Source: an uncultured Acidobacteriota bacterium (GTDB taxonomy: Bacteria > Acidobacteriota > Thermoanaerobaculia > Multivoradales > SZUA-115). From it: DNA of 64,000 nucleotides. Below the pieces are notes generated by a model that saw nothing but the letters and a program-made list of their open reading frames with translations, was not told the DNA's origin and made no database searches. The position numbers and the translations under genes are program-made. Shown here piece by piece: positions 44,206-64,000 of this stretch. The DNA is taken from positions 896,001 to 960,000 of the forward strand of contig CAWDVR010000002.1 of the NCBI GenBank assembly GCA_963805975.1, read 5' to 3'. Positions within the stretch are counted from its first letter, which is position 1. The number at the start of each line of letters is the position of its first letter.

Positions 44206-44356
44206 CGGCAGCGCGGCTCCGCGCCCTGGCTCCCAACCGGCCAGCCCCGCGCTGGCGGGGCGGGGCCCGCCTCACTGCCTTGTCACGTCCATGCCGGGCT
44301 CAAACCAGGGCCCTGGCAGCGGCCGGTGTCGTCCCGGCCGCCACAGAGCGAACCTT

Positions 44357-44384
44357 GGAATATTTCAGCGTGGGCGCTCGTACT
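44357..44384 (+). promoter_or_regulatory. Possible ECF-sigma type promoter
   Basis: GGAATA-N16-TCGTAC upstream of the gene at 44506; resembles the GGAA../CGT ECF consensus. Confidence 0.25.
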
Positions 44385-44505
44385 CCCCGATATCGTCGCC
44401 GCTCTTCGAAACGGCGGGGGCGCTTCGCCTCAACCAGGTTCTCGCAGGGCATCGCACGGCCCGCGCGGGTCCACCTCTCCCGGCGCGACTCCCAGGAGAC
44501 CTGAT

Positions 44506-46243
44506 ATGACCATCGCTCAGACCGACGAACCGACTCCTCGGAAGCCGCTCCGGCTGTGGCCCGGCGTGGTCGCCGTGGTGCTGCAGTGGCTGCTCTGGTT
44601 CGTCGTCCCCATCGTCGCGCCCGATGCCGCCATGTTCGCGATGCTTGGCGGAGTCGCCTGCGGGTTGGCTGTCGTCGTGTGGTGGCTGTTCTTCAGCCGG
44701 GCGCCCTGGTCCGAGCGCTTGGGCGCCTTCGTCGCTGATGATCGTCGCGGTGGTCGCGACACGCGCCATCCTCCACGAGTCGATTGCGACCGGGGCGATG
44801 GGGATGATGTTCTCCATCTACGCCATCCCGGTCCTGAGCCTCGCGTTGGTCGCCTGGGCGGTGGCCAGCCGTCGCCTCTCTGCCGGACCTCGGCGCGCGG
44901 CGATGGTCGCGGCCATCCTGCTCGCGTGCGGAGTGTGGACGCTCCTGCGGACCGGTGGCATCAGCGGCGGCGGTGCCCAGATTTCGCCTGGCGGTGGTCG
45001 ACCGACTCCCGAGGAACGGCTCCTGGCCCAAGCCGGCAAGACGAGCCGACGGCGCCGCCGCCCGGCTCCGGCAGCGGCGGGAGACAGGAGCCGACTGGCC
45101 CGGCTTTCGCGGACCGGATCGCGACGGCATCGTCCGCGGCGTGCGGATCGAGACCGACTGGTCGAAGTCGCCGCCGGTCGAGCTGTGGCGCCGGCCGATC
45201 GGACCGGGCTGGTCGTCCTTCGCGGTCCACGGCAACCTCCTCTACACCCAGGAGCAGCGCGGTGACGACGAGGTCGTCGCCTGCTACAAGCTGACCACCG
45301 GCGAGCCGGTGTGGAGACACCGCGACGCGGCCCGGTTCTGGGAGTCGAATGCCGGCGCCGGTCCGCGCGCGACGCCGACCCTCAGCAACGGCCGCGTCTA
45401 CACGCTCGGTGGCGACCGGAATCCTGAACGCGCTCGACGCCGGCGACGGCTCCGTCGTGTGGTCGCGCAACGCGGCGGCCGACACCGGCGCGAAGCTCCC
45501 GGATCTGGGGCTTCTCGAGCTCGCCGCTGGTGGTCGGCGACCTCGTCATCGTCGCCGCCTCCGGCACGCTCGCCGCCTACGACCTCGCCACCGGCGATCC
45601 GCGCTGGCTCGGCCCGGCCGGCGGCGCGAGCTACAGCTCGCCACATCTCGCGACGATCGACGGAGTCGCGCAGGTCCTGCTGCTGAACGGCGCCGGCGCG
45701 ACCAGCGTCGCGCCGGCCGACGGCACGCTGCTCTGGGAGCACGCGTGGCCGGGCGACCCCATCGTGCAGCCGGCCCTGACCGCGGACGGCGACGTCCTGA
45801 TCAGCGTCGAGCGACCGGAAGCGGCACTGCGCCGCCTCGCGGTCGCGCACGGACCCGGCGGATGGACCGCCGAGGAGCGCTGGACGTCGATCGGGCTGAA
45901 GCCCTACTTCAACGACTTCGTCGTTCACAAGGGCCATGCCTTCGGCTTCGACGGCAGCATGCTCGCGTGCATCGACCTCGAGGACGGCAAGCGCAAGTGG
46001 AAGGGCGGACGCTACGGCCACGGCCAGCTCGTCCTGTTGCCCGACCAGGACTTGCTGCTGGTGCTGTCGGAGAAGGGTGAGCTGGCGCTGGTCGCGGCGA
46101 CCCCCGACCAGTTCACGGAGCTCGCGCGGCTCCCGGCGATCGAGGGCAAGACCTGGAACCACCCGGTGCTGGTCGGCGACGTCCTGCTGGTTCGCAACGA
46201 CCAGGAGATGGTCGCGTTCCGGCTGTCCCTCGCGGGCGGCTGA
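44506..46243 (+). pseudogene. Membrane-anchored PQQ-like beta-propeller protein with multiple frameshifts (pseudogene or assembly errors)
   Basis: Pieces in all three frames: PLRLWPG.., MIVAVVATR.., [51 protein letters not shown]. Single-base indels near 44734, 44978, 45001, 45039-45080, 45411 and 45502. Confidence 0.8.
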
Positions 46244-46249
46244 CCCGCC

Positions 46250-48025
46250 CTACTCCGCCACCGGCACTTCGAGCACGCTGGGGTGGGCCGTGTCGTGGAA
46301 GAGCTGGACGTTGGCCGCCCGGATGTCGGCCGCGGTCTCGTGACCGATCTTGCCGCCGGAGTTGAAGTTGCGCTGGAAGTCGGGTGAGTCGACGGGGCCG
46401 ACCATCAGGCGCAGGCGGGTGCCGGCGGGGAGGCGCCGGACGGTGAACCAGAAGCTGTCGAAGATGTAGGGCAGCACGGCGCCCGCGGGCACGGGCCTGG
46501 CCTCGCTCGGGCCCTCGCGGTAGCGGGCGCGCACCATGTCCCAGCCCAGGAGCAGGCTCCGGCCCGTGGGCTCTATGGCCCAGACCCCCGCCGCGAGGTC
46601 AGTGTCCGGCACGTCGAGCGCCACGTAGAGCGTGAGCTTCATGTTGCCGGCGAGGGTCGCCGGCTCGGCGAGCGGGGCGCTGTGGTAGACGAGCCGCCCC
46701 TTGCGGAAGGCGTCGCGCGAGTCGAGGTTGTAGTCCTCGACCTCGTCCAGGTAGCCCTCGGCCGTCGCCCTGTCCTGCGGGTCGTAGCGGAAGGCGTCCG
46801 GCGACTGGCGCTCGCGCGGCGCGCCCTCGAGGTAGCCGGAGTGGAAGGGGTCGCCGGCACGGCCGCCGTCCGAGGCCAGGTAGAAGCGCAACGTGCCCTT
46901 GGCGAGCGCCTCGAGGCTGGGCGCCCCCCGCCACTCGTCGGCGCCCATCACGTAATAGGTCACCTGGTCCTTGATCGCCGGCGGGCGCGACTTACCGCGC
47001 AGCAGGGAGTCGTACCAGTCGACGTGGAGCTGGTCGAGGTCGAGGACCGCGTGCTCCGGGAACTCGAAGCCGCCGAGCTCTTGCTTCGGATAGCGGGTGC
47101 CGGCGTGGTCCCAGGGGCCGAGCAGCAGGTAGTGCTTGCCGCGCGCTGCGGCCGAGGCGTGCTGCAGGTGCTCGCGGTAGTAGCGCAGCGCGCCCGGCTG
47201 GTCGCCGTCGAAGTAGCCGGTGATCGAGAGGATCGGCAGGTCCATCGCCCGGTAGTCCTCGGGCGTCGGGTTGTGCCCCTGCCAGAAGGCGTCGTAGGCG
47301 GGGTGCTCGAGCCAGCGGTCGAAGATCCGGGTGTCGATCCCCGAGCGCTTGGCGAGCTCCGCGAAGGGCGCCAGGTCCTGGTAGAGGCGCAGGAACTTGC
47401 GGTGCCAGTAGCCGTCGTCGCCAAAGAGCTCGCGGTTCGAGACGTGGCCCTGGGTGAAGGCGAGCCATTGCGCCATGTAACTGATGAAGACGCCCTTGGC
47501 CTGTGGGTAGTCGTGGCCGGGATAGACAGCCGCGGTGGGCACCACGGCCGCGAGGCCCGGCGGGTTCTCGGCCAGGGTCTGCCACTGCGTCATGCCGCGG
47601 TAGGAGCCGCCGCGCATCACCACCCGGCCGTCGCTCCACGGCTGGCGGCGGATCCAGGCGACCACCGCCGCACCGTCGGGCCCGTTGCCGAACAACGGGT
47701 TGAACTCGCCGTCCGAGCCGCCGCGCCCGCGACGGTCGACGCTCACGTAGACGTAGCCGGCCGCGACGAACTTCCAGGCCCGCTTCTGCTGCTCGTCGTT
47801 GACGTAGGGCGTGAGCACGAAGATCGCGGGGAGCGGTTCCCTCTGGTTCGCCGGCCTCCAGATGCGCGCCGAGAGCTCGATGCCGTCGGGCATCGGGATG
47901 CGCTGGTCCACCACCAGGTCGATCTCGGTGTCTTTCGGGTCGGGGCCGGCTTCCCGAGCCGCGGCGGGAGAGAGGGCGCCCAGCGTGAAGAGGAGGGCGA
48001 GGGCGAGGATCTTCCGCTGCTTCAT
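46250..48025 (-). CDS. CocE/NonD family serine hydrolase, secreted
   Basis: IPMPDG..LSA, TPY, DRRGRGGSDG, GGSYRG nucleophile, GYFD, GPWDH; ATGA overlap with the upstream M20 gene. Confidence 0.92.
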   Translation of the reverse strand: MKQRKILALALLFTLGALSPAAAREAGPDPKDTEIDLVVDQRIPMPDGIELSARIWRPANQREPLPAIFVLTPYVNDEQQKRAWKFVAAGYVYVSVDRRGRGGSDGEFNPLFGNGPDGAAVVAWIRRQPWSDGRVVMRGGSYRGMTQWQTLAENPPGLAAVVPTAAVYPGHDYPQAKGVFISYMAQWLAFTQGHVSNRELFGDDGYWHRKFLRLYQDLAPFAELAKRSGIDTRIFDRWLEHPAYDAFWQGHNPTPEDYRAMDLPILSITGYFDGDQPGALRYYREHLQHASAAARGKHYLLLGPWDHAGTRYPKQELGGFEFPEHAVLDLDQLHVDWYDSLLRGKSRPPAIKDQVTYYVMGADEWRGAPSLEALAKGTLRFYLASDGGRAGDPFHSGYLEGAPRERQSPDAFRYDPQDRATAEGYLDEVEDYNLDSRDAFRKGRLVYHSAPLAEPATLAGNMKLTLYVALDVPDTDLAAGVWAIEPTGRSLLLGWDMVRARYREGPSEARPVPAGAVLPYIFDSFWFTVRRLPAGTRLRLMVGPVDSPDFQRNFNSGGKIGHETAADIRAANVQLFHDTAHPSVLEVPVAE

Positions 48026-49611
48026 CGTGGGTTGGTCTCCGAAGGGCCGTCGCCGGGCGGCATGGTCAGGATGGCGGCGATCGAGGTGATGCCCTGCCAC
48101 AGGTGGCCGAGCCGCAGGTTCTCGTTCTCTTCGTGCTGGTTGTTGTCGAAGTTCACGATCGGCAGGAGCGCCGCCGGGAAGCCCAGCGCCTCGATGAACG
48201 GCGCGATCGGCACCGTGCCGCCCAGCGTGCGGAGGACGACCGGCTTCTCCCCCCAGGCGCGCTCGAGCGCCGCGATCAGCCGCTGCGAGCCCGGCGCCAC
48301 CGGCGAGGTACGGAAGGCGTTCGTGCCCTGCCCCGCCACCAGCCGGGCGAGCCGGGGATGGCGCGCACGGGTGGCGTCGTCGGGGTCCTCGTCCACCAGG
48401 TGGAAGCCCCGCGCTACCACGTGCTCGCGCAGCCGGCGCACCATGTCGTCGGCCCTCGTTTCCTGGACCAGCCGGATGTCGATCTCGGCCACCGCGCGGT
48501 CCGGGATGATGGTGCGCGCCTCGGCCCCGACGTAGGCGCTGGCCAAGCCCCGGATGTTCAACGTCGGGCGCAGCAGGGCCTGCTGCAGGGTGAGCCCCGG
48601 CTTCTCCGGCGCGGCGATGCCGAAGGTCCGGAGCAGCCGCTCCGGCTCCTCGGGCACGGCGGCGAGCAGGGCCTCTTCCTCGGCGGTGAGCCGCACCAGG
48701 TCGTCGTAGAAACCCGCGACCTTCACCTCGCCGCTCTCGTCCTTCATCGAGACCAGGAGATGAGCAAGGGCGAGGGCGGGGTTCGGCACCCAGTTGCCGT
48801 AGTTGCCGCTGTGCACGCCGACCTTCGGGCCGTAGACGGTGAGCTGCGCGGTGACGATGCCGCGCGCGCCGAAGACCAGCGTCGGCTGGCCGGTGAAGTA
48901 GGCCGGGCCGTCGAGGATCAGCATCAGGTCGGCCGCGAGCCGGTCGCGATAGCGGGCGATGGCCGGCACCAGGCTCGGGCTGCTGGCCTCCTCCTCGCCG
49001 TCCAGGACCACCCGCAGGTTCGAGGTGAGAGCGAAGCCGGAAGCCCGCACGGCGTCGATCGCCGCCAGCAGGGCGACGATCGGCCCCTTGTCGTCCGAGG
49101 CCGAGCGCGCGTAGAGGCGCCAGTCCGGCTCGAAGCTCGTGCGTTCGCGGAGGCCCGCGATCTCCTGGGCTCCCTGGTCCACCCGCCCCCCCTCGAGACG
49201 CCCGGAGCGCAGCACCGGCTGCCAGGGGCTTTCCTGCTGCCAGCGCGCGGGGTCGACCGGCTGGCCGTCGTAGTGGCAGTAGAGGAGGAGGGTGCGGGAG
49301 GCGCCCGGCACCCGGAGCTCCCCGTAGACCAGAGGGTTGCCGTCGGTCTCCAGCACCTCGGCCGCAAAGCCGCGCCGGGCGAGCAGGCCGGTGAGGAGCT
49401 CGGCATTCCTGCGGATGTTGGCGCGGTCGGCCGCGACGTTGGGAAGGGTCAGGAGCTGGACCAGCTCGCCCACGATGGCCTGCTGGTGGGCGGCGGTGTA
49501 GGTCTCCACTCGGGCGCGGAGGTCGGCCGGCTGGGCCGCGGCGAAGCCCGGGCCAACGATCAACGCACCGACGGCGCAACCCGTGATTTGCAGTGTTCTG
49601 AAAGCTTGCAC
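48022..49611 (-). CDS. M20/M25/M40 family metallopeptidase, secreted
   Basis: GTG start after GGAGGAGG; YCHYDGQP, ARSASDDKG, DGEEE, HSGNYG, GGTVP, NQHEENE. Confidence 0.92.
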   Translation of the reverse strand: MQAFRTLQITGCAVGALIVGPGFAAAQPADLRARVETYTAAHQQAIVGELVQLLTLPNVAADRANIRRNAELLTGLLARRGFAAEVLETDGNPLVYGELRVPGASRTLLLYCHYDGQPVDPARWQQESPWQPVLRSGRLEGGRVDQGAQEIAGLRERTSFEPDWRLYARSASDDKGPIVALLAAIDAVRASGFALTSNLRVVLDGEEEASSPSLVPAIARYRDRLAADLMLILDGPAYFTGQPTLVFGARGIVTAQLTVYGPKVGVHSGNYGNWVPNPALALAHLLVSMKDESGEVKVAGFYDDLVRLTAEEEALLAAVPEEPERLLRTFGIAAPEKPGLTLQQALLRPTLNIRGLASAYVGAEARTIIPDRAVAEIDIRLVQETRADDMVRRLREHVVARGFHLVDEDPDDATRARHPRLARLVAGQGTNAFRTSPVAPGSQRLIAALERAWGEKPVVLRTLGGTVPIAPFIEALGFPAALLPIVNFDNNQHEENENLRLGHLWQGITSIAAILTMPPGDGPSETNPR

Positions 49612-53320: not shown

Positions 53321-54190
53321 TCAATGAGAGTCCCGTAGCGCCTCCAGCTTCCGCCGCAGCAGCTCCGCCTCCGGCAGGCCGCGCTCGAAGCCGAGGAGCG
53401 CGTCCTCCCACGAGCCGTAGACCGGGTTTGAGAGCATGATCCACCGGCTGCCCCAGTAGGCGGCGTAGGGCCTGGCAAGCGCTTCGCGTTGCTCCACGCT
53501 CTGCTTGACGCCGGAGAGGAAGTCGCCGAGGTCGTCGCCCACCAGGAGCAGCACGCGGAACTGGTCGGCGACGAACTTCCTGCGCGGGCCCTTGTCCGAC
53601 TCCTTCCACTCCTCGCGCGAGCCGCGCGTGAAGAGCGTCTCGCGCTCGGCGGCGAGCGGGAAACCCTGGCGGCGCAGGTTCTCGCGCGTCGCCTCCTGCA
53701 CCCCCACGTCGCGGTTGGTGACGTAGAACACGGTCACACCGCGCTCGGCCGCGTAGCGTGTGAGCTCCGCCGCACCGGGAACGGGGGGCGCGGCGCTCTC
53801 GTTGCACCAGGCGGTCCAGGAATCGCTCGCGTAGCGCTCGCGCTTGCGGATGAGCCGGGCGGCGTAGGGCGAGTTGTCGAGCACCGTCTCGTCCACATCG
53901 AGAATGATCGCCGGCGGCCGGCTGGCGAAATCCCCGCTCTGCTCGGTCGCGGCCGTCCAGGTGGGGTCGGCGAGCGCGGCGTCGAGAGCGCGCCGCGCCG
54001 CCGCGTACGCCTGGAGCGACGACGCGCGGTACTCCTCGGCGGTCTGCTGCCAGAGGTTGGCGTTGAGGACGTCGTAGCTGAACGCCTGGGCCGGCGGAGC
54101 AGCCGCCGGCGGCGCGGTGGCGCAGCCGGCGGCGAACAGCAGGAGCAGCGGTACGGCGAGCGAACGCGCTCTGCGCATGGGCGACCTCAC
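53321..54190 (-). CDS. Class C acid phosphatase / 5'-nucleotidase lipoprotein (e(P4), HAD)
   Basis: FAAGC lipobox, DVDETVLDNSPY, YVTNR, K..RR, GDDLGDF, NPVYGSW. Confidence 0.92.
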   Translation of the reverse strand: MRSPMRRARSLAVPLLLLFAAGCATAPPAAAPPAQAFSYDVLNANLWQQTAEEYRASSLQAYAAARRALDAALADPTWTAATEQSGDFASRPPAIILDVDETVLDNSPYAARLIRKRERYASDSWTAWCNESAAPPVPGAAELTRYAAERGVTVFYVTNRDVGVQEATRENLRRQGFPLAAERETLFTRGSREEWKESDKGPRRKFVADQFRVLLLVGDDLGDFLSGVKQSVEQREALARPYAAYWGSRWIMLSNPVYGSWEDALLGFERGLPEAELLRRKLEALRDSH

Positions 54191-56508: not shown

Positions 56509-57831
56509 TCAGAAAGCGCGGGTCAACAACAGCAGGAGCGCCGGGATCGCGACCACCCCCGCCGCCGCCCAGGCGAGCCGGCGATCCTGCCGGCGCGCGC
56601 GGGCGAGGGCGTCCGCGTACGGGATGGTGGTGTGCGAGATCATGGTGTAGAGCGGCATCCAAGCGGCCGGGAAGAGGCGCGACAGCAGCAGGTCGAGCCG
56701 CTTGCGGGCGCGGAAGAAGGGCGAGCTCACCCGCTGCCGCAGCTCCAGGAAGTTCTCCTTCGACAGCTCGGCCAGGGTGTCGGTGTGCACCTTGCGCCGC
56801 CGCTGGTAGTCGGCCAGCGCTTCGCCGCGCCGGCTGCCGTGCTCCTCCAGGCAGGCGACGAGCGTGGTGCAGTCCTCGAACGCCGAGTTCATGCCCTGGC
56901 CGTAGAACGGGTAGACGGCGTGGCAGGCGTCTCCCACCAGCACCAGCCAGTCGCCCAGGTGCCAGGGCGAGGTGCGGGTGGTGACGAGCGAGCCTTCCGG
57001 GTGCCGCCGCCACTGCTCGAGATAGTCGGGCACCAGGGCCGGCACGTCCGGGAAGTAGCGGCGGAAGAAGGCCGCGATCTCCTCGGCCGAACGGAGCTCG
57101 GCAAAGCTGTCGGGGCCCTCGAAGGGCAGGAACAGGGTCGCGGTGTGCGAGCCGTCGAGATTGGGGTGGGTGACGATCAGGCAGTGGCCCCGCGGCCAGA
57201 CGTGGAGGGCCGTGAGCTCGATCGCCGAGGAGCCATCGGGCTTCGCCGGCACGGTCAGCTCCTTGTAGCCCCACTCGAGGTACTCCTGGCTGTAGTTGGC
57301 GCGCTCGCCGCGCTGCATCTCCTGGCGCAGGCGCGAGAACGCGCCGTCGGCGCCGATCAGCAGCTCCGCCGCCACGGCGAGCGTCCGCCCGCCGGCCTCG
57401 TCGGCCACCGCCAGCGTCCGCGCCTCCTTGTCCAGGGCGAGGCAGCGATGGCGGAAGTGGAAGCGCGCGCCACGACCCTCGGCGCGGTCGATCAGGGCGC
57501 GGTTGAGCTCGTTGCGGTCGACCGAGTGCAGCACCTCCTCGCCGCGGTTGCCGTAGGCCTGGAAGCTGGTGCCACCGCCCTCGGCGTGGATCACCCGGCC
57601 GCGCATGGTCACGGCACGGCCCAGGATCTGCTCTTTCATCCCCACCATGGCGAGCGCCGCCAAGCCCCGCTTGGAGAGCCCGAGGTTGATCGAGCGGCCC
57701 TCGGCCCCCAGGCGCAGGCGCGGGTCGTCGCGGCGCTCGTAGACGTCGACCTCGAAGCCGCGCTCGGCAAAGGCGGCGGCCAAGAGCGACCCGGTCAGGC
57801 CGGCGCCCGCGATGGCGATGCCGTGGCTCAA
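56509..57831 (-). CDS. kmo: Kynurenine 3-monooxygenase-like FAD-dependent monooxygenase
   Basis: GAGLTG, ERRDD, GRSINLGLSKRG, GADGAFS, GYKEL, LHVWPRG, GDACHAVYPFYGQGMNSAFED, ENFLEL, PLYTMI..T..PY. TTG start with GGAGG RBS. Confidence 0.85.
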   Translation of the reverse strand: MSHGIAIAGAGLTGSLLAAAFAERGFEVDVYERRDDPRLRLGAEGRSINLGLSKRGLAALAMVGMKEQILGRAVTMRGRVIHAEGGGTSFQAYGNRGEEVLHSVDRNELNRALIDRAEGRGARFHFRHRCLALDKEARTLAVADEAGGRTLAVAAELLIGADGAFSRLRQEMQRGERANYSQEYLEWGYKELTVPAKPDGSSAIELTALHVWPRGHCLIVTHPNLDGSHTATLFLPFEGPDSFAELRSAEEIAAFFRRYFPDVPALVPDYLEQWRRHPEGSLVTTRTSPWHLGDWLVLVGDACHAVYPFYGQGMNSAFEDCTTLVACLEEHGSRRGEALADYQRRRKVHTDTLAELSKENFLELRQRVSSPFFRARKRLDLLLSRLFPAAWMPLYTMISHTTIPYADALARARRQDRRLAWAAAGVVAIPALLLLLTRAF

Positions 57832-57884
57832 ACGAGCCTCCGCGGGCTCAAACGAGCCTCCGCGGGCTCAAACGACCCCCCGCG
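57825..57884. repeat. Tandem 20-bp repeat x3 spanning the DUF6875/KMO junction
   Basis: ggctcaaacgagcctccgcg twice, then ggctcaaacgaccccccgcg. Confidence 0.95.
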
Positions 57885-58701
57885 CCAGCTCCAGGGCCTG
57901 GGCGAGGAGCTCGGAGTGGCGCAGCTCGATCTCGGCGTTGACCAGGGACTCGAGCGCGATCTGGAAGTTGCGCCCGCTGGTCTCGCTGCCGAAGCGGCGC
58001 AGGTAGGAGCGCAGGAAGCTCGCCCGCGTGGCGGGGGCGTCGAGCGAGCGCGACAGGAAGGGCAGGTCGGACTCCACCATGTGGCGGATGGCCACCATCG
58101 GGATCGGGCTGGCGAGGGGCCGGAAGTCGTCGCTGCGCAGGCCCGGCGTCTCGTTGCCGGGATAGAACTCGCCGATCATCAGCCCGGCCTGGACGAAGTG
58201 GGGCTTGAGCTCCTGCTTCACGTTCTCGATCAGCTCCGCCGCCGTCTCCGCGTCGAGGTCGGGGAACACGGTGACGATCGACTTGTTCATGCACAGCGGC
58301 TCTTCCCGCGGCTCGAGCGCGAGGAAGGTCTCGCGATAGGCGGTGAGGACGGCGAGCAGCTCCTCGCGGCTCGGGCTGGCGCCGGGCACCAGGGCGAGCC
58401 ACACGGTGCCGAGCTTGAGCGAGGGCCCGACGAACGGGCAGACGGCGCCGCTCCTCCCGAGATCGGCGTGCGGCTGCGCGAGGAAGCTCCGCAGCCAGGC
58501 GACGACCGCGGCGAGCGCCGGGTAGCGGTCGGCCTGGGTCTCGACCTCGGTGGCGAGGAAGAGGCGGCCGGTTTCGTCGATCGTCATCGCCGCCGGGGCA
58601 GTCGCGCCATGGCGGCCGGTGACCGGACAGACGGCGGCGAACTTCGGATGGGCACCGGAGGGTTCGCGGCAGGAGGCGTCGGGGGTCGGGGTCGTGTTCA
58701 T
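57868..58701 (-). CDS. DUF6875 family protein (putative heme-dependent oxygenase)
   Basis: WLRSFL..PHADLGRSGAVCPFV, GLMIGEFYP, PGL...DFRPL.SPIPMVAIRHMVESDLPFL; N-terminal CPVTG. Start could be 58740, 58701 or further downstream. Confidence 0.8.
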   Translation of the reverse strand: MNTTPTPDASCREPSGAHPKFAAVCPVTGRHGATAPAAMTIDETGRLFLATEVETQADRYPALAAVVAWLRSFLAQPHADLGRSGAVCPFVGPSLKLGTVWLALVPGASPSREELLAVLTAYRETFLALEPREEPLCMNKSIVTVFPDLDAETAAELIENVKQELKPHFVQAGLMIGEFYPGNETPGLRSDDFRPLASPIPMVAIRHMVESDLPFLSRSLDAPATRASFLRSYLRRFGSETSGRNFQIALESLVNAEIELRHSELLAQALELARGVV

Positions 58702-58726
58702 AGCGTTCTCGATTCCAAGGCTGCTT

Positions 58727-60082
58727 TCAGGAGCGGGCAACGAGCTCGGCCGCCACGCTGGGAGGGCCGACGGACGCGGAAGGCTCGGGGCTACAGTCGG
58801 GGAGCTCCTCCTCCACCCGGCGCAGCGGGCGGACGAGGTAGCCGGTGGCTGCCAGGGCGGTCATGGCGAGCCCGCCGAGCAGGAACATGGCGGCCATGCC
58901 GCGGCCGGGGCCGGTGCCGATCAGCCGGCCGAGGCTCGCCGCCCAGGCGCCGCCGGGAGCCAGCAACGGCTCGAACACGCGGTCGGCGAGCGGGCCGGCG
59001 AGCGCATAGCCCAGCGGCATGGCGGCTTCGCTCAGCATGCGCTGCACGGCAAAGGAGCGCCCCTGGTAGTCGGGCGGCACCTTCACCTGCCAGATCGAGT
59101 CGTTCGAGGCGTTGATCACCGGCAGGGTGAAGAAGAAGCAGAAGCCGGCCGCCGCCAGCAGCGGGATCGACGGCGCCGGGCTGTGGAGCGCGATCGCGAG
59201 GCCGGCCAGGGCGAGGAAGCCGAGCACGCCGTGGATGCGCCGCCGCGGGCCGCCCCACAGGCTCATGACGAGCCCGCCCGCCACCAGGCCGCAGCTCGCG
59301 ATCGACATCTGGAAGCCGAGCTGCGCCGGCGTGCCGAAGGCGAGGATCATCGGCGTGATGAGCACCGCGAGGATGCCGAGCGCGAAGTTGAAGCCGCCGA
59401 AGACCAGCAGCATGGAGAGCAGGCCGGCGCGCTCGCGCACGTAGCGCCAGCCGAGCGCCACCTCCTCGAGAAGGCTGGTCCCCGCCGCCTCGGCCCTGGG
59501 TGGGCGCGGGATGCGCGCCGCGGAGAGCGCCGCCACCGCCACGACGAAGCTCGCGCAATCGACCGCCAGCACCGTGGCCAGCGAGAAGGCGGAGACCAGG
59601 ACCCCGGCGAGCATCGGCCCCAGCACCTGGGCCGTGGCGCGCGCCATCTGCACCATGCCGTTGGCCCGCGGCAGGTGCTCGGCCGGCAGCAGCAGCGGCA
59701 GGCTCGCCGCGTAGGCCGGGATGTGGAAGGCGCTGGTCAGCGCCATCACCGCCGCGCTGACGTAGACGTGCCAGACCTCGAGCCGGTCGGAGGCCGCGAG
59801 CAGCGCCGCGGCGAGCGTGGTGGCCGCGGCCACCACGTCGGCCCCGATCATCGTGCGCCGGCGGTCCCAACGGTCCACCAGGGCGCCGGCGAAGAGCGAG
59901 GCCAGGACCGCCGGGATCGCGGCGCAGACGAAGATCAGGGCATAGCGGGAAGCCGAGCCCGTGACCTGGTAGACCCAGATCCCCATCGCGAAGGCCGAGA
60001 GCCCCGAGCCGATCAGCGACACGAGCTGCCCGCTCAGAAGCAGGGCGAAGTCGCGGCGGCGCAAGAGCGGGGCGAGGCTCAC
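58727..60082 (-). CDS. MFS efflux transporter of the NRPS-associated (EntS/Mef-like) type
   Basis: GTGA overlap with the NRPS stop; GQLVSLIGSGL..FA, GALVDRWDRRR..I.AD, RANG, QGRSFA, GPLADRVFEPL, GPGRG. Confidence 0.92.
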   Translation of the reverse strand: MSLAPLLRRRDFALLLSGQLVSLIGSGLSAFAMGIWVYQVTGSASRYALIFVCAAIPAVLASLFAGALVDRWDRRRTMIGADVVAAATTLAAALLAASDRLEVWHVYVSAAVMALTSAFHIPAYAASLPLLLPAEHLPRANGMVQMARATAQVLGPMLAGVLVSAFSLATVLAVDCASFVVAVAALSAARIPRPPRAEAAGTSLLEEVALGWRYVRERAGLLSMLLVFGGFNFALGILAVLITPMILAFGTPAQLGFQMSIASCGLVAGGLVMSLWGGPRRRIHGVLGFLALAGLAIALHSPAPSIPLLAAAGFCFFFTLPVINASNDSIWQVKVPPDYQGRSFAVQRMLSEAAMPLGYALAGPLADRVFEPLLAPGGAWAASLGRLIGTGPGRGMAAMFLLGGLAMTALAATGYLVRPLRRVEEELPDCSPEPSASVGPPSVAAELVARS

Positions 60083-63000
60083 CGCGCCACCTCCGCCGCC
60101 AGCTCCCCTACGAGCTCTTGGGGCTGCGGGGCGGGCAACGCGCCACGGCGCTCGAGGAAAGCGAGGTAGAGGTCGGCCAGGGCCGCGTCCGCCGGCGGGC
60201 AGAGGATGCCGGCCGCGGCCAGGAGCTCCTCGGTCGCGGTGCAGTCGAGCTCCGGCTCGGAAGTGTCCGGGTCGTCCACGTACACCGGCAGCCAGGGCGC
60301 GAGAGCGTTGGCCTCTCCCGCCGCCACCGCGGCCCGCAGCTCGGCGAGCCATTCCCGGTAGGGCAGGTCGCGCACCGCGTAGCCCCGCGCCCGCAGCCGC
60401 TCGGCGAGCCGGCCCACGGGCAGCGTACGGCGGTTGAAGAAGTGAAAGGCGCCGCCCGGCGCCCGGGTAAGAGACAGATGGACGATGCCGCGCGCCACGT
60501 AGTCGACAGGCGCCATGTCCAACGTGTCGTCCGGGTTGGGCAGCGCGCCCAGCTCGATCGCGCCGCGGAGCCAGGTCGAGAAGAAATCGCCAGGGTTGGC
60601 GGCGCCGCTGTCGCTCGCGCCGGTGATACGCGCCGGGCGGTAGACGGCGACCGGCAGGCCGCGCTCGCCGGCAGCCGCCACCAGCTTTTCCGCCACCCAC
60701 TTGCTCTGGTTGTAGCCGCCCTGGATCTCGGCGACCGGCGGCAGGGCGTCGCCCTCGCGTACGACGCGGTCGAAGTACGACGGCACGACGAAGACGCCGA
60801 GGGTGGAGACGAAGTGGACGGGCTTCAACCGATGGCGCGAGGCGAGGCGCAGGATCTCGACCGTGCCGGCGACGTTGGTGGCCCGCAAGCGCTCGTAGGG
60901 GGCCAGGAAGTTGACCGCGCCGCCGTTGTGGTAGATGGCGTCGAGCCGCCGCGCCAGCTCGTCGAAGGTTTCTGCCGACAGGCCCAGCCGCGGCGCGCCG
61001 AGGTCGCCGAGCACCGGCTCGATCCGGGCCTCCAGAGCGGGTGTCGCGAGGCCGTAGGAAGCGAGGTTGTCGAGCACGCGGCGCAGGCCCTCGGCGGGTG
61101 TCGCGGCGCGCACCAGGCAGAGGATCCTGGCCCGCGTGCGGGCGGCCAGCTCGGCGGCGAGGAAGGCGCCCAGGAAGCCGGTGGCGCCGGTCAGGAGCAC
61201 GGCGCGTGCCTCGGCGGGCGGCCGCGCGGGGTCGGCCCCGGCCGCCTGCACGTCCGCGGGCAGGGCCGCTTCCGCCTGCCAGTCGACGCCCGGCTCCACC
61301 TCGCGCCCGAGCCGCGCCGCCTCCACGCGCTCCGCCAGGGCCGCCGGCGTCGGCGCCTGGAAGACCGCGGCCAGCGGCAGCTCGACGCCGAGCTCCCGGC
61401 GCACGCGCGTCAGCAGCGGAATGGTGGCGAGCGAGGTGCCGCCGAGGGCGAAGAAGTCGTCGTCCGCGCCCACCTGGCCGGGCTCGAGCCCCAGGCTCGC
61501 CGCCCACACCCGCACCAGCGCCGCCTCGATCGGTGTGCGGGGCGCTAGGCGGGCGCGCTCGGCCGCGGCCGGAGGCGCCGGCAGGGCCTTGCGGTCCACC
61601 TTGCCGTGCGAGGTCAGGGGCAGCTCGGGCAGCAGCACGAAGCTCGAAGGCACCATGTACTCGGGCAGCTTCTGGCGCAGCAAGGCTTTGAGCTCCTCCG
61701 CCAATCCCGGTTCCTCCCCGCCCTCGACCGCGGCATAGGCCACCAGCCGCCGGTCGCCGGTGCGCTCCTCCCGCGCCATCACCGCCGCCATGCGCACCCG
61801 GGGATGGGCGCCGAGCGCCGCCTCGATCTCGCCGGGCTCGACACGGAAGCCGCGGATCTTGATCTGCTGGTCGGCCCGGCCCAGGAAATAGAGCCGGCCG
61901 TCCGGCAGGCGGCGCGCGAGGTCGCCGGTCCGGTAGAGACGCGTACCCGGCTCGCCGTAGGGATCAGGCGCGAAGAGGCCGGCCGTCAGCCCCGGCCGCC
62001 CGAGGTAGCCGCGGGCCACGCCGGCGCCGCCCAGGCAGACCTCGCCGGCCACGCCCGGCGGCACGGGCCGGCCGAGACGGTCCAGCACGTAGGCACGGAC
62101 GTCGCCGTAGGGCCGGCCGGCGGGCATCTCCGGTGTCGTCCATTCGGGCGCCGTCCATGGGGGAGCGGAACCGGCCGCGCGCTCGATCGTGGCGCAGACC
62201 GTGGCCTCGGTGGGCCCGTAGTGGTTGTAGAGCGGCGCCCGGCCGTGGGTGAGCCGCGCCCAGGCGCGCGCCCTCTCCGCCGGCACCGCCTCGCCGCCGA
62301 CCATCATCAGGCGCATGCCGGGCAGGGGGTCTTTCTCTCCCCGTGCGTCCCACTCCTCCACCCAGCGGCCCCACAGCGCGGCCGGCGCGTCGATCGCCGA
62401 CACCCGCTCCGCGGCGCAGAGCTCCGCCAGCTCGCGGGCCGAGAGCTCGCCCGGGGCCGGGTGCAGCACCAGCGTGGCGCCGGTGGCCAGGGCCGGGAAG
62501 AGGTCCCCCACCGAGGCGTCGAAGTAGAGCGGCGGCAGCATCAGCAGCCGGTGCCCGGCGAAGCCGTGGACACGCGCGAACTCGCGCACGAAGTGCTCGG
62601 CCGAGCGCTGACTGACGGCCACGCCCTTGGGCTTGCCCGTCGAGCCCGAGGTGTAGATCACGTAGGCGAGCTGCCCGGGCAGCGCGGTGGGGACCTCTCG
62701 CGAAAGGCCGTCGTTCGGGCTGACCTGTTCTTCGTCCGCGGGCGCTGCGTCATCGGTGGCGAGCAGGCGCACCGCCGAGCCGGCCACGGCCGGCGCCAGC
62801 GCGGGCAAGAGAGCACGGCGGGTGAGCACGATCCCGATCCCCGCGTCGGCGAAGAGCTCGGCCAGCCGCGCGCCGGGGCTCGCCGGATCGAAGGGCACGT
62901 AGGCGCCGCCGGCGGCGAGCACGCCGAGCACCGCGACCGGCATCTCGACCGAGCGGTCGAGGACCACGGCGACGCGCGTCTCGGCCCCCACGCCCAGGCC

Positions 63001-64000
63001 CGCGAGCTTCTTGCCCAGCCGGCGCGCGCGGGCCAGCAGCAGGCCGTAGGTCAATCGGCCGTCGGCGGCGGCCACTGCCTCGGCCTCGGGAGTGCGCTCG
63101 GCCTGCCGCGCGCAGAGGGCGAAGAGGCCACCCGAGAAAGGGGGCCCGGGCTCGCCGCTCGCCGCCCAGGTGGCGACCGCCTGCTCGTGCTCGGCGGCCG
63201 TCAACAGGGGGAGCTCACCCATCGGGAGCGACGGGTCCGCCACCGCGGCCCGGGCGAAGGTCTCGAGGTGGCCGATCCAGCGGGCGATGGTGGCGGCGTC
63301 GAAGAGGTCGGTCGCGTAGTCGACGACACCGGCCAGGTCGCGCCCGTCCTCGGCGAAGGAAAACGTGAGATCGAAGCGGGCGGCGGCCACCGGCGGCTCG
63401 ACCACCGAGACCTCGAGCCCGCCGGGACGATCGGCGCCGCCGCCGGCCGGCGCGTTCTGCAGCACCAGCATGGTCTGGAAGAGCGGGTTGTAGCTCGGGC
63501 TGCGCTCCACCCGCAGCCTCTCGACCACCGCCTCGAGCGGCGTCTCCTGGTGGGCGAAGGCCGCCAGGCAGACCTCTTTCGCACGCGCGACCAGCTCACG
63601 GAAGGGGGGCTCGCGGAACGAGGGCTCCCCCGCAAGGTCGGCGCGCAGCACCAGGGTGTTGACGAAGAGGCCGATCAGGCCTTCGAGCTCGCCGCGGTCG
63701 CGGTTCGCGACCGCGGTGCCGAGCGCCAGGTCGCGCCGGCCGGAGAGCCGGCCGAGGAACGCCGAGAGGAGCGCGACGAGCGCCATGAACAGGCTCGCCT
63801 GCTCGCCGCGCGCGACGGCGCCCAGCGAAGCGGCGAGGCCGGGGAGCACGAAGGCCTGCCGGGCGCCCGCCAGGCTCGCGACCGGCGGCCGGGCCCGGTC
63901 GGCCGGCAGGTCGAGCACCGCCGGCAGGCCGGCGAGCGCCTGCTCCCAGGCGGCGAGGGCCTGCTCCGCTCCCGGCCCGCCGGCACGCCGCCGGTGCCAC
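60079..64000 (-). CDS. NRPS, C-terminal part: condensation (partial), adenylation, PCP and terminal thioester reductase domains; 5' end outside the window
   Basis: C: LDLPADRARP, IGLFVNTLVLR, HQETP, PLFQ. A: YTSGSTGKPKG, FDAS, NHYGPTE, YRTGD, KIRGFRVE, GKVDRKAL. PCP: FFALGGTSL. R: LTGATGFLG, YNQSK, RPARI. Confidence 0.96.
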   Translation of the reverse strand, partial: WHRRRAGGPGAEQALAAWEQALAGLPAVLDLPADRARPPVASLAGARQAFVLPGLAASLGAVARGEQASLFMALVALLSAFLGRLSGRRDLALGTAVANRDRGELEGLIGLFVNTLVLRADLAGEPSFREPPFRELVARAKEVCLAAFAHQETPLEAVVERLRVERSPSYNPLFQTMLVLQNAPAGGGADRPGGLEVSVVEPPVAAARFDLTFSFAEDGRDLAGVVDYATDLFDAATIARWIGHLETFARAAVADPSLPMGELPLLTAAEHEQAVATWAASGEPGPPFSGGLFALCARQAERTPEAEAVAAADGRLTYGLLLARARRLGKKLAGLGVGAETRVAVVLDRSVEMPVAVLGVLAAGGAYVPFDPASPGARLAELFADAGIGIVLTRRALLPALAPAVAGSAVRLLATDDAAPADEEQVSPNDGLSREVPTALPGQLAYVIYTSGSTGKPKGVAVSQRSAEHFVREFARVHGFAGHRLLMLPPLYFDASVGDLFPALATGATLVLHPAPGELSARELAELCAAERVSAIDAPAALWGRWVEEWDARGEKDPLPGMRLMMVGGEAVPAERARAWARLTHGRAPLYNHYGPTEATVCATIERAAGSAPPWTAPEWTTPEMPAGRPYGDVRAYVLDRLGRPVPPGVAGEVCLGGAGVARGYLGRPGLTAGLFAPDPYGEPGTRLYRTGDLARRLPDGRLYFLGRADQQIKIRGFRVEPGEIEAALGAHPRVRMAAVMAREERTGDRRLVAYAAVEGGEEPGLAEELKALLRQKLPEYMVPSSFVLLPELPLTSHGKVDRKALPAPPAAAERARLAPRTPIEAALVRVWAASLGLEPGQVGADDDFFALGGTSLATIPLLTRVRRELGVELPLAAVFQAPTPAALAERVEAARLGREVEPGVDWQAEAALPADVQAAGADPARPPAEARAVLLTGATGFLGAFLAAELAARTRARILCLVRAATPAEGLRRVLDNLASYGLATPALEARIEPVLGDLGAPRLGLSAETFDELARRLDAIYHNGGAVNFLAPYERLRATNVAGTVEILRLASRHRLKPVHFVSTLGVFVVPSYFDRVVREGDALPPVAEIQGGYNQSKWVAEKLVAAAGERGLPVAVYRPARITGASDSGAANPGDFFSTWLRGAIELGALPNPDDTLDMAPVDYVARGIVHLSLTRAPGGAFHFFNRRTLPVGRLAERLRARGYAVRDLPYREWLAELRAAVAAGEANALAPWLPVYVDDPDTSEPELDCTATEELLAAAGILCPPADAALADLYLAFLERRGALPAPQPQELVGELAAEVAR

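Follow-up and report, generated by a model that had tools for sequence, protein, structure and literature searches.

We identified a gene cluster for a reductase-terminated nonribosomal peptide synthetase (NRPS) pathway at the end of a 64,000-nucleotide stretch of DNA from an uncultured Acidobacteriota bacterium (GenBank assembly GCA_963805975.1, contig CAWDVR010000002.1, positions 896,001 to 960,000 of the forward strand), hereafter the window. Its genes include an NRPS that ends in condensation, adenylation, peptidyl carrier and reductase domains (C-A-PCP-R), a major facilitator superfamily (MFS) exporter, a DUF6875 protein and a flavoprotein resembling kynurenine 3-monooxygenase (KMO). This variant of such pathways is real and widespread and has apparently not been characterised before, and its sequences make a new building block and a new flavoenzyme activity probable. 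The reading we favor, with a probability of roughly 0.55, is that the DUF6875 protein, by its motifs a cytochrome P422, and the KMO paralog doubly hydroxylate tryptophan, and that the NRPS yields an Ala-Gly-(dihydroxy-Trp) aldehyde or alcohol, which is exported.

An initial annotation of the window had reported these four genes as linked on the minus strand and had proposed that two tryptophan-pathway oxygenases serve the NRPS and its exporter. Gene calls and domain searches confirm the four genes, their place and the C-A-PCP-R end, and the proposed partnership gains support from family membership and co-occurrence. The four-gene extent, however, proved too narrow: two more NRPS genes and a GT87 glycosyltransferase gene lie upstream, and a DUF5916 gene lies downstream.

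Linkage of the oxygenases to one adenylation-domain code

The adenylation domain of the terminal NRPS (NRPS3) carries the specificity code DAGDMGHVC; codes were taken from motif anchors and checked on an alignment with LgrA. Among the best 80 of 581 P422 loci, 40 have a KMO gene, 42 an MFS gene, 32 a reductase, eight DUF5916, six GT87 and two a methyltransferase. A DAGDMGHVC module lies within 10 kb in 30 of the 40 KMO-bearing loci and in one of the 40 that lack KMO, 17 of which show DPW-type codes instead. For the reverse direction, a motif scan of adenylation domains provided 119 loci, 80 of them with flanking sequence; 73 of these 80 bear the code, and 57 have full 20-kb flanks. Both oxygenases are present in 57 of the 73 code-bearing loci and in 53 of the 57 fully flanked ones, which also carry a reductase (56), an MFS gene (55) and an O-methyltransferase of family PF00891 (40). 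The co-occurrence elsewhere that the initial annotation called for is thus borne out. P422 is found in 55 of the 57, and DUF6875 in only 5 of 400 randomly drawn Actinomycetota genomes (the centre genome apart), so the linkage to the module is far beyond chance; the counts share kin and are not independent, and the forward and reverse locus sets overlap.

The exporter, the two oxygenases (P422 and the KMO paralog) and the DAGDMGHVC module make up the constant core of the family, whereas the upstream residues differ between members, as does the capping enzyme. The preceding module is of Gly type in 41 of 49 loci and of Lys type (DAEDIGTVI) in four. Eight further loci have no other adenylation domain within 10 kb upstream of the DAGDMGHVC module and still have P422 nearby, and in a few (L094, L174) the module is placed inside a longer NRPS that has no reductase. 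DUF6875 is carried by 11 of 150 relatives, and several relatives repeat the order reductase-MFS-P422-KMO-DUF5916.

Hosts of the family include Acidobacteriota, Lysobacter, Rugamonas, Chloroflexota and many rare actinomycetes. Of 61 genomes in the neighbourhood of L. enzymogenes, 16 contain the code motif. The initial annotation had stressed a chemically little-explored lineage; the cluster is not lineage-specific, and its culturable carriers include Lysobacter enzymogenes, Rugamonas, Salinispora, Saccharothrix, Nonomuraea and Planomonospora. A single metagenome cluster has in this way become a defined family, estimated at about 220 stretches, and the unassigned code DAGDMGHVC is tied to a pathway.

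Several loci depart from this organization. One genome (G004) has a split cluster, with GT87-MFS-P422-KMO-DUF5916 and no NRPS between GT87 and MFS on contig C1 (L029), and a multi-module NRPS ending in DAGDMGHVC-reductase on contig C5 (L049). A single-module member in Virgisporangium has a tryptophan halogenase and a divergent P422 nearby (L175:853-3250), which suggests a halogenated variant. MBOAT acyltransferase genes follow the oxygenases in L086 (12067-17133), L094 and L174, where no reductase was seen at the NRPS end; L086 also has a carbamoyltransferase gene alongside. Two genomes (L020 and L052 in G002; L026 and L047 in G056) hold larger NRPS clusters in which the P422-KMO pairs are divergent and the code takes the variant form DAGDVGPVC or DAGDVGPVA. 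In cyanobacterial loci (L077, L091, L098, L103, L109 and others), P422 occurs without KMO beside adenylation domains with DPWxxGxID codes, and these form a second candidate family of hydroxy-Trp peptides.

The two putative tryptophan hydroxylases

The DUF6875 protein matches PF21780 with 202.5 bits against a cut-off of 24.5, and its closest named record is from a Thermoanaerobaculia metagenome-assembled genome (76% identity). A 2025 preprint (10.64898/2025.12.11.692455) describes, in the sections covered, the renaming of DUF6875 to cytochrome P422, a family of Cys-ligated heme enzymes that it separates from His-ligated heme hydroxylases. Of 84 soluble members tested there, 41 hydroxylate L-Trp at N1, 18 at C7 and 15 at C6. 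The motifs of the window copy indicate that it belongs to this family: the heme motif RxGxVCP (RSGAVCP, with Cys88), MxGxF (MIGEF) and Rx(M/L)x3Dx2F (RHMVESDLPF) are all present with the published spacing, and the intervals from Cys to Lys (78), Lys to Met (9) and Met to Arg (31) equal those of Mc170 and match ThnD too. The Luz15-type relationship suggested in the initial annotation is therefore not supported, since the Cys-thiolate P422 family is set apart from the His-ligated enzymes. One motif differs. The Dx2(Q/H)x3K of SBR2 reads ExxKxxxK, so that the Lys anchor is kept and Gln is replaced by Lys; this residue, Lys162, corresponds to the substrate-binding Gln in 119 of 120 close homologues. 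At this place (58216-58218) the close relative reads Gln-Lys and the window copy Lys-Gln, a change in a conserved substrate anchor that may be genuine or an assembly error. A Q132A mutant in the preprint retains 43% activity (10.64898/2025.12.11.692455).

Our tree gives the window copy no firm place, so the choice among N1, C6 and C7 rests on the clade descriptions in the preprint. According to the sections covered, NRPS-linked P422s of Cyanobacteriota, Pseudomonadota and Actinomycetota are mostly N1-hydroxylases, although a C7 subclade from actinomycetes is often linked to NRPSs as well (10.64898/2025.12.11.692455). In the part of the zigralone work covered, the P422 member ZigI is tied to C7-hydroxylation and subsequent O-methylation (PMC13307353). 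Our quick tree groups proteobacterial members with cyanobacterial ones (SH-aLRT 94); two of its rows labelled KMO-linked (L174 and L185) have no KMO in their flanks. N1 is our best guess for the predicted site on tryptophan, with C6 second. The family would offer a direct test of the undiscovered N1-hydroxy-Trp peptides predicted in the covered part of the preprint (10.64898/2025.12.11.692455).

A sequence search of the PDB with P422 gave no match. The fold search with its model listed no TDO- or HDAO-like fold (TDO, tryptophan 2,3-dioxygenase), which does not exclude such a fold, nor did it list the P422 crystal structure that the preprint names. The best fold match was AglA of Streptomyces monomycini (Foldseek E 8e-4, TM about 0.4), which was also the sole match at a Z of at least 8 (VIA Z 9.8, rmsd 4.0 over 148 residues). 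We take AglA to be a YqcI/YcgG Cys-heme arginine N-hydroxylase. If this is right, P422 would gain a distant relative despite the unique fold claimed in the covered sections of the preprint.

The best PDB match of the flavoprotein is KMO of Pseudomonas fluorescens (E 7e-91; fold TM 0.87), the numbering of which is used here. The class A flavoprotein fold and the anchors R84, Y98, N369 and Y404 are kept, and the protein therefore likely binds a free amino acid. The conserved hydrophobic ring pocket (A56, I106, L213, F238, P318, F319 and M373) and L226 are not retained as a whole: F238, P318 and F319 are kept, and the changes are A56G, I106L, I224V, L226H, M373L and F409H. In the covered part of a structural study of KMO (PMC5477544), L226 lines a water-filled pocket next to the bound ring, so His at this position points to a substrate whose ring already carries a polar group. 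In a tree of 42 rows, a single clade (98/93) unites the 30 KMO rows associated with P422, every one of which has His at L226 and Leu at M373. Six rows beside kynureninase or TDO keep L226 and M373 and fall outside this clade; 13 further KMO loci were examined besides the P422-linked ones. His also occupies the L226 position in every one of the best 120 homologues (the query among them), as expected of a set chosen by similarity. Eleven of the best 120 are single-chain P422-KMO fusions with the P422 part N-terminal, an arrangement that would suit consecutive steps without an enzyme between them; three of the fusions were examined over their whole length. These proteins define a subfamily of KMO that carries the database label kynurenine 3-monooxygenase but has a pocket suggesting another substrate.

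A housekeeping KMO was considered and rejected; the proteins form a distinct paralog clade apart from the KMOs beside kynureninase or TDO. A second KMO-family gene is present in 30 of 40 host genomes, and one of these is VioC. In the window genome, a second KMO-family gene (G000:C5:285538-286851) lies beside a giant NRPS cluster and falls in a sister clade (L226 kept, M373L, F409H) that is also found in L290 and L286.

The retained KMO fold, with all carboxylate and amine anchors, would also fit a kynurenine route, which we consider unlikely. P422 would form 6-hydroxytryptophan, host TDO and formamidase would open the ring, the KMO paralog would give 3,4-dihydroxykynurenine, and the released aldehyde and aryl amine would close to a 1-benzazepinone imine. 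TDO is encoded elsewhere in 77 of 81 host genomes, so kynurenine is available. The window genome itself holds TDO, kynureninase and two cyclase-family genes, and fungal NRPSs make benzazepines from kynurenine, as the covered part of one report describes (PMC9598734). However, the fungal kynurenine clusters described there carry their own IDO (PMC9598734), whereas TDO and kynureninase genes, which the initial annotation proposed to look for, occur in none of the 80 forward loci and none of the 73 code-bearing reverse loci. Moreover, four hosts, including the 99%-complete G008, have no TDO by family or protein search, and the fusions leave no obvious room for two intervening enzymes. Of the precursors first suggested, a hydroxylated tryptophan unit is the most likely, and kynurenine is possible but less likely, with TDO never in the cluster, the oxygenases sometimes fused and the KMO paralog distinct. 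An anthranilate unit is unlikely because the cluster has no kynureninase and the NRPS3 adenylation domain keeps Asp235, which binds an alpha-amino acid.

An improbable alternative for the flavoprotein is a VioC-like reaction, in which P422 would provide 1-hydroxy-Trp and the flavoenzyme would oxidise C2 of the indole, yielding a 1-hydroxy-oxindole that would chelate iron as a cyclic hydroxamate. VioC (NF053548) is indeed the best NCBIfam match, and N1 is the commonest P422 activity, reported in the covered sections for NRPS-linked cyanobacterial and proteobacterial members (10.64898/2025.12.11.692455). The score, however, is 191 bits against a cut-off of 760, whereas verified VioC scores 807, lacks R84, Y98 and N369 and sits on a long separate branch. 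The frequent O-methyltransferase could, in addition, block a hydroxamate. Given this score and these anchors, the flavoprotein was rejected as a VioC orthologue.

NRPS modules and the predicted product

The NRPS3 reductase scores 329 bits with TIGR01746 (cut-off 213), and its TGATGFLG, ST and YNQSK motifs are intact, giving a C-A-PCP-R end with a Rossmann motif and a Ser/Thr-Tyr-Lys triad. The condensation domain motif of NRPS3 is HHIVFDA, and ordinary HHxxxD is found throughout the family. In the intact copies of a same-genus genome (G001), NRPS1 has the code DLFNNALTY and NRPS2 the code DILQLGLVW, presumably for Ala and Gly. The ordinary condensation motifs and intact reductase motifs predict an Ala-Gly-X aldehyde or alcohol. 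All three NRPS proteins carry similar short N- and C-terminal segments, which look like docking domains. NRPS1 starts directly with an elongation-type condensation domain and has no N-terminal acyl-loading module. In a tree (FastTree only) this domain falls among elongation domains and apart from the first modules of the other clusters in the genome, so it may be idle, accept an unknown donor or permit module reuse.

In the double-hydroxylation pathway that we favor, P422 would act first on free tryptophan (most likely at N1, next at C6), because the family acts on tryptophan and P422 is N-terminal in the fusions. The KMO paralog would then add a hydroxyl at C7, the position that adjoins the ring nitrogen and is equivalent to C3 of kynurenine. 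The terminal DAGDMGHVC module would load the dihydroxy-Trp and join it to Ala-Gly, the reductase would release the product as an aldehyde or alcohol, and the MFS protein would export it. GT87 would glycosylate one hydroxyl outside the cytoplasm, and O-methyltransferase would cap it in other hosts. The two enzymes never occur together in the 80 forward and 80 reverse flanked loci, which suggests that one hydroxyl receives either the one cap or the other. In L. enzymogenes and Rugamonas, GT87 has nucleotidyltransferase genes nearby. Gene content, family membership, co-occurrence, fusion and pocket changes are the observations from which we infer the substrates, reaction order, regiochemistry, oxidation level at release and activity.

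The dihydroxy-Trp end would be the conserved business end of the product, most plausibly metal-binding or redox-active, or else an aldehyde directed at proteases. A bolder form of the proposal, for which we would give somewhat less than even odds, is a cross-phylum family built on the new amino acid 1,7- (or 6,7-)dihydroxytryptophan, made by a P422 and a KMO repurposed from kynurenine to an indole, with its own adenylation code, reductive release, and capping by O-methylation or by glycosylation within the cell envelope. An enzyme pair that doubly hydroxylates tryptophan with regioselectivity would, if real, be a useful biocatalyst.

Several points weigh against this pathway, among them the kinship of the counted loci, the kynurenine available to most hosts and the Lys at P422 residue 162. 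No published assignment of DAGDMGHVC was found in the literature searched, and an acid at code position 278 (Asp278) is, we assume, typical of codes for basic residues. We found no earlier case of a KMO homologue that acts on indole C7, and the operon has no ferredoxin gene. The P422 tree is poorly resolved, gives no firm place to the window copy and includes no characterised P422. Finally, NRPS1 and NRPS2 are frameshifted in this assembly. Both are intact in G001, at 81% DNA identity, and relative to that genome, 24 net frame-breaking events fall within 4.1 kb of A-T sequence, whereas the condensation domains (2.7 kb) and the coding sequence of the 8 kb downstream are free of them. Local assembly error would fit this pattern better than decay, and a true pseudogene was rejected, as the breaks are confined to the A-T parts. 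Elsewhere in the window, further genes seem split over reading frames (44326-46243 and 46250-49579), and the assembly may hold more indel errors.

The acidic code residue is also the starting point for a doubtful alternative in which the terminal module would load a basic amino acid to give a leupeptin-like aldehyde, with the oxygenases acting elsewhere or after release. Asp278 and Gly239 together resemble the pockets for Orn, Lys and Arg, and AglA, the best fold match of the P422 model, was crystallised with arginine. However, a separate Lys-type module (DAEDIGTVI) precedes the DAGDMGHVC module in four loci, both oxygenases keep the residues that bind free aromatic amino acids, and the eight loci with no other adenylation domain within 10 kb upstream keep P422 nearby. 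Related codes occur on contig C5 of the window genome (G000:C5:188782, 195162 and 252104; AAGDMGHVG, DLTDMGHVG and AAGDVGHVG), two of them without the amine-binding Asp235.

The layout of the three NRPS genes recalls SfmA, SfmB and SfmC of saframycin biosynthesis, likewise three genes for Ala, Gly and an oxygenated aromatic residue with a terminal reductase, as the covered part of one report describes (PMC6274189). With hydroxylases and often an O-methyltransferase present, a Pictet-Spengler line could join an Ala-Gly aldehyde and hydroxy-Trp to a tetrahydro-beta-carboline. This appears the least probable of the alternatives: the condensation domains of the family have ordinary HHxxxD motifs, that of NRPS3 groups with ordinary elongation domains, and single-module and internal-module versions exist. 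Moreover, SfmC requires a cryptic fatty acyl chain according to that part of the report (PMC6274189), and an acyl-ligase starter that could supply one is absent here. Unlike saframycin, the cluster has no acyl starter, and its tailoring is of Trp rather than Tyr type.

Operon organization and related systems

Sequence beyond the window edge, which the initial annotation proposed to retrieve, shows that the operon continues for 9 kb upstream of the edge as one minus-strand run (Table 1).

Table 1. Features of the operon in transcriptional order. Coordinates above 64000 are window-equivalent and were read beyond the window edge.
Feature	Coordinates	Strand	Remarks
GT87 membrane glycosyltransferase, 518 aa	73031-71475	-	Beyond window; homologues in related clusters
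NRPS1, C-A-PCP	71463-68056	-	Beyond window; Ala-type code; frameshifted in A-T part
NRPS2, C-A-PCP	68059-64653	-	Beyond window; Gly-type code (intact same-genus copy); frameshifted in A-T part
NRPS3, C-A-PCP-R, 1525 aa	64656-60079	-	Start beyond window; code DAGDMGHVC
MFS exporter, Mef/EntS-like, 451 aa	60082-58727	-	Family models
DUF6875 (putative cytochrome P422), 277 aa	58701-57868	-	PF21780, E 7e-60; motifs
20-nt tandem repeat, 3.0 copies	57825-57884		Spans P422 stop and kmo start
KMO-like class A flavin monooxygenase, 440 aa	57831-56509	-	C-terminal hydrophobic helix
DUF5916/CBM9-like envelope protein, 757 aa	56465-54192	-	PF19313 and PF06452; ESM Atlas 0.99

Successive GTGA overlaps join NRPS1, NRPS2 and NRPS3. 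The GTGA overlap between NRPS3 and the MFS gene and the 25-nt gap from there to DUF6875 are exactly as first annotated. The TTG described as coupling kmo to DUF6875 does overlap the DUF6875 stop, but the tandem repeat puts it outside the kmo reading frame; the TTG that is in frame follows 37 nt downstream, preceded by GGAGG. In L005, a close relative, the TTG at the overlap does share the kmo frame. A scan for promoters and terminators gave matches at chance level only. The DUF5916 gene starts 43 nt past kmo, encodes a hydrophobic segment at the N-terminus and adjoins the cluster in L005, L029 and loci of Rugamonas, Janthinobacterium and Lysobacter; its product is likely an outer-membrane partner of the cluster in diderm hosts. 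The acid phosphatase gene that follows (53321-54184) was left out, as it is not adjacent in L005.

Full-text literature searches, in which few subscription journals were covered, found no product or description of this gene combination, in agreement with the initial annotation, and it is rather unlikely that the product of such a cluster has already been described. In pyrrolobenzodiazepine clusters such as that of porothramycin, a KMO gene accompanies a reductase-terminated NRPS, and TDO and kynureninase make the anthranilate starter; here neither enzyme is encoded, and the aromatic unit is last rather than first. NRPS3 shares its domain order with the C-A-PCP-R modules of myxochelin MxcG, its best NCBIfam match, at 732 bits far under the 2300-bit cut-off, and the operon has no aryl-carrier genes. 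P. fluorescens KMO has the same fold and anchors, as far as the covered part of its description goes (PMC5477544), whereas the proteins described here form a separate clade linked to P422 and NRPS rather than to TDO and kynureninase. The P422 tryptophan hydroxylases, including ZigI, resemble the window copy in Pfam family, Cys motif, clamp motifs and NRPS setting, to judge from the parts covered (10.64898/2025.12.11.692455; PMC13307353), and differ from it in the SBR2 Gln. The covered sections of the preprint describe no KMO pairing or fusion, and state that C7-type P422s bypass KMO (10.64898/2025.12.11.692455).

One cluster of Herbidospora, 'nrps-2', appears in the covered part of an in silico listing as x-Gly-Lys-x, with the last residue unpredicted and no product (PMC4599437). 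The words kynurenine and monooxygenase are absent from the main text covered. The module order and gene sizes given there fit the family member in L240 and L241 (PMC4599437), and nrps-2 is likely a member of the family.

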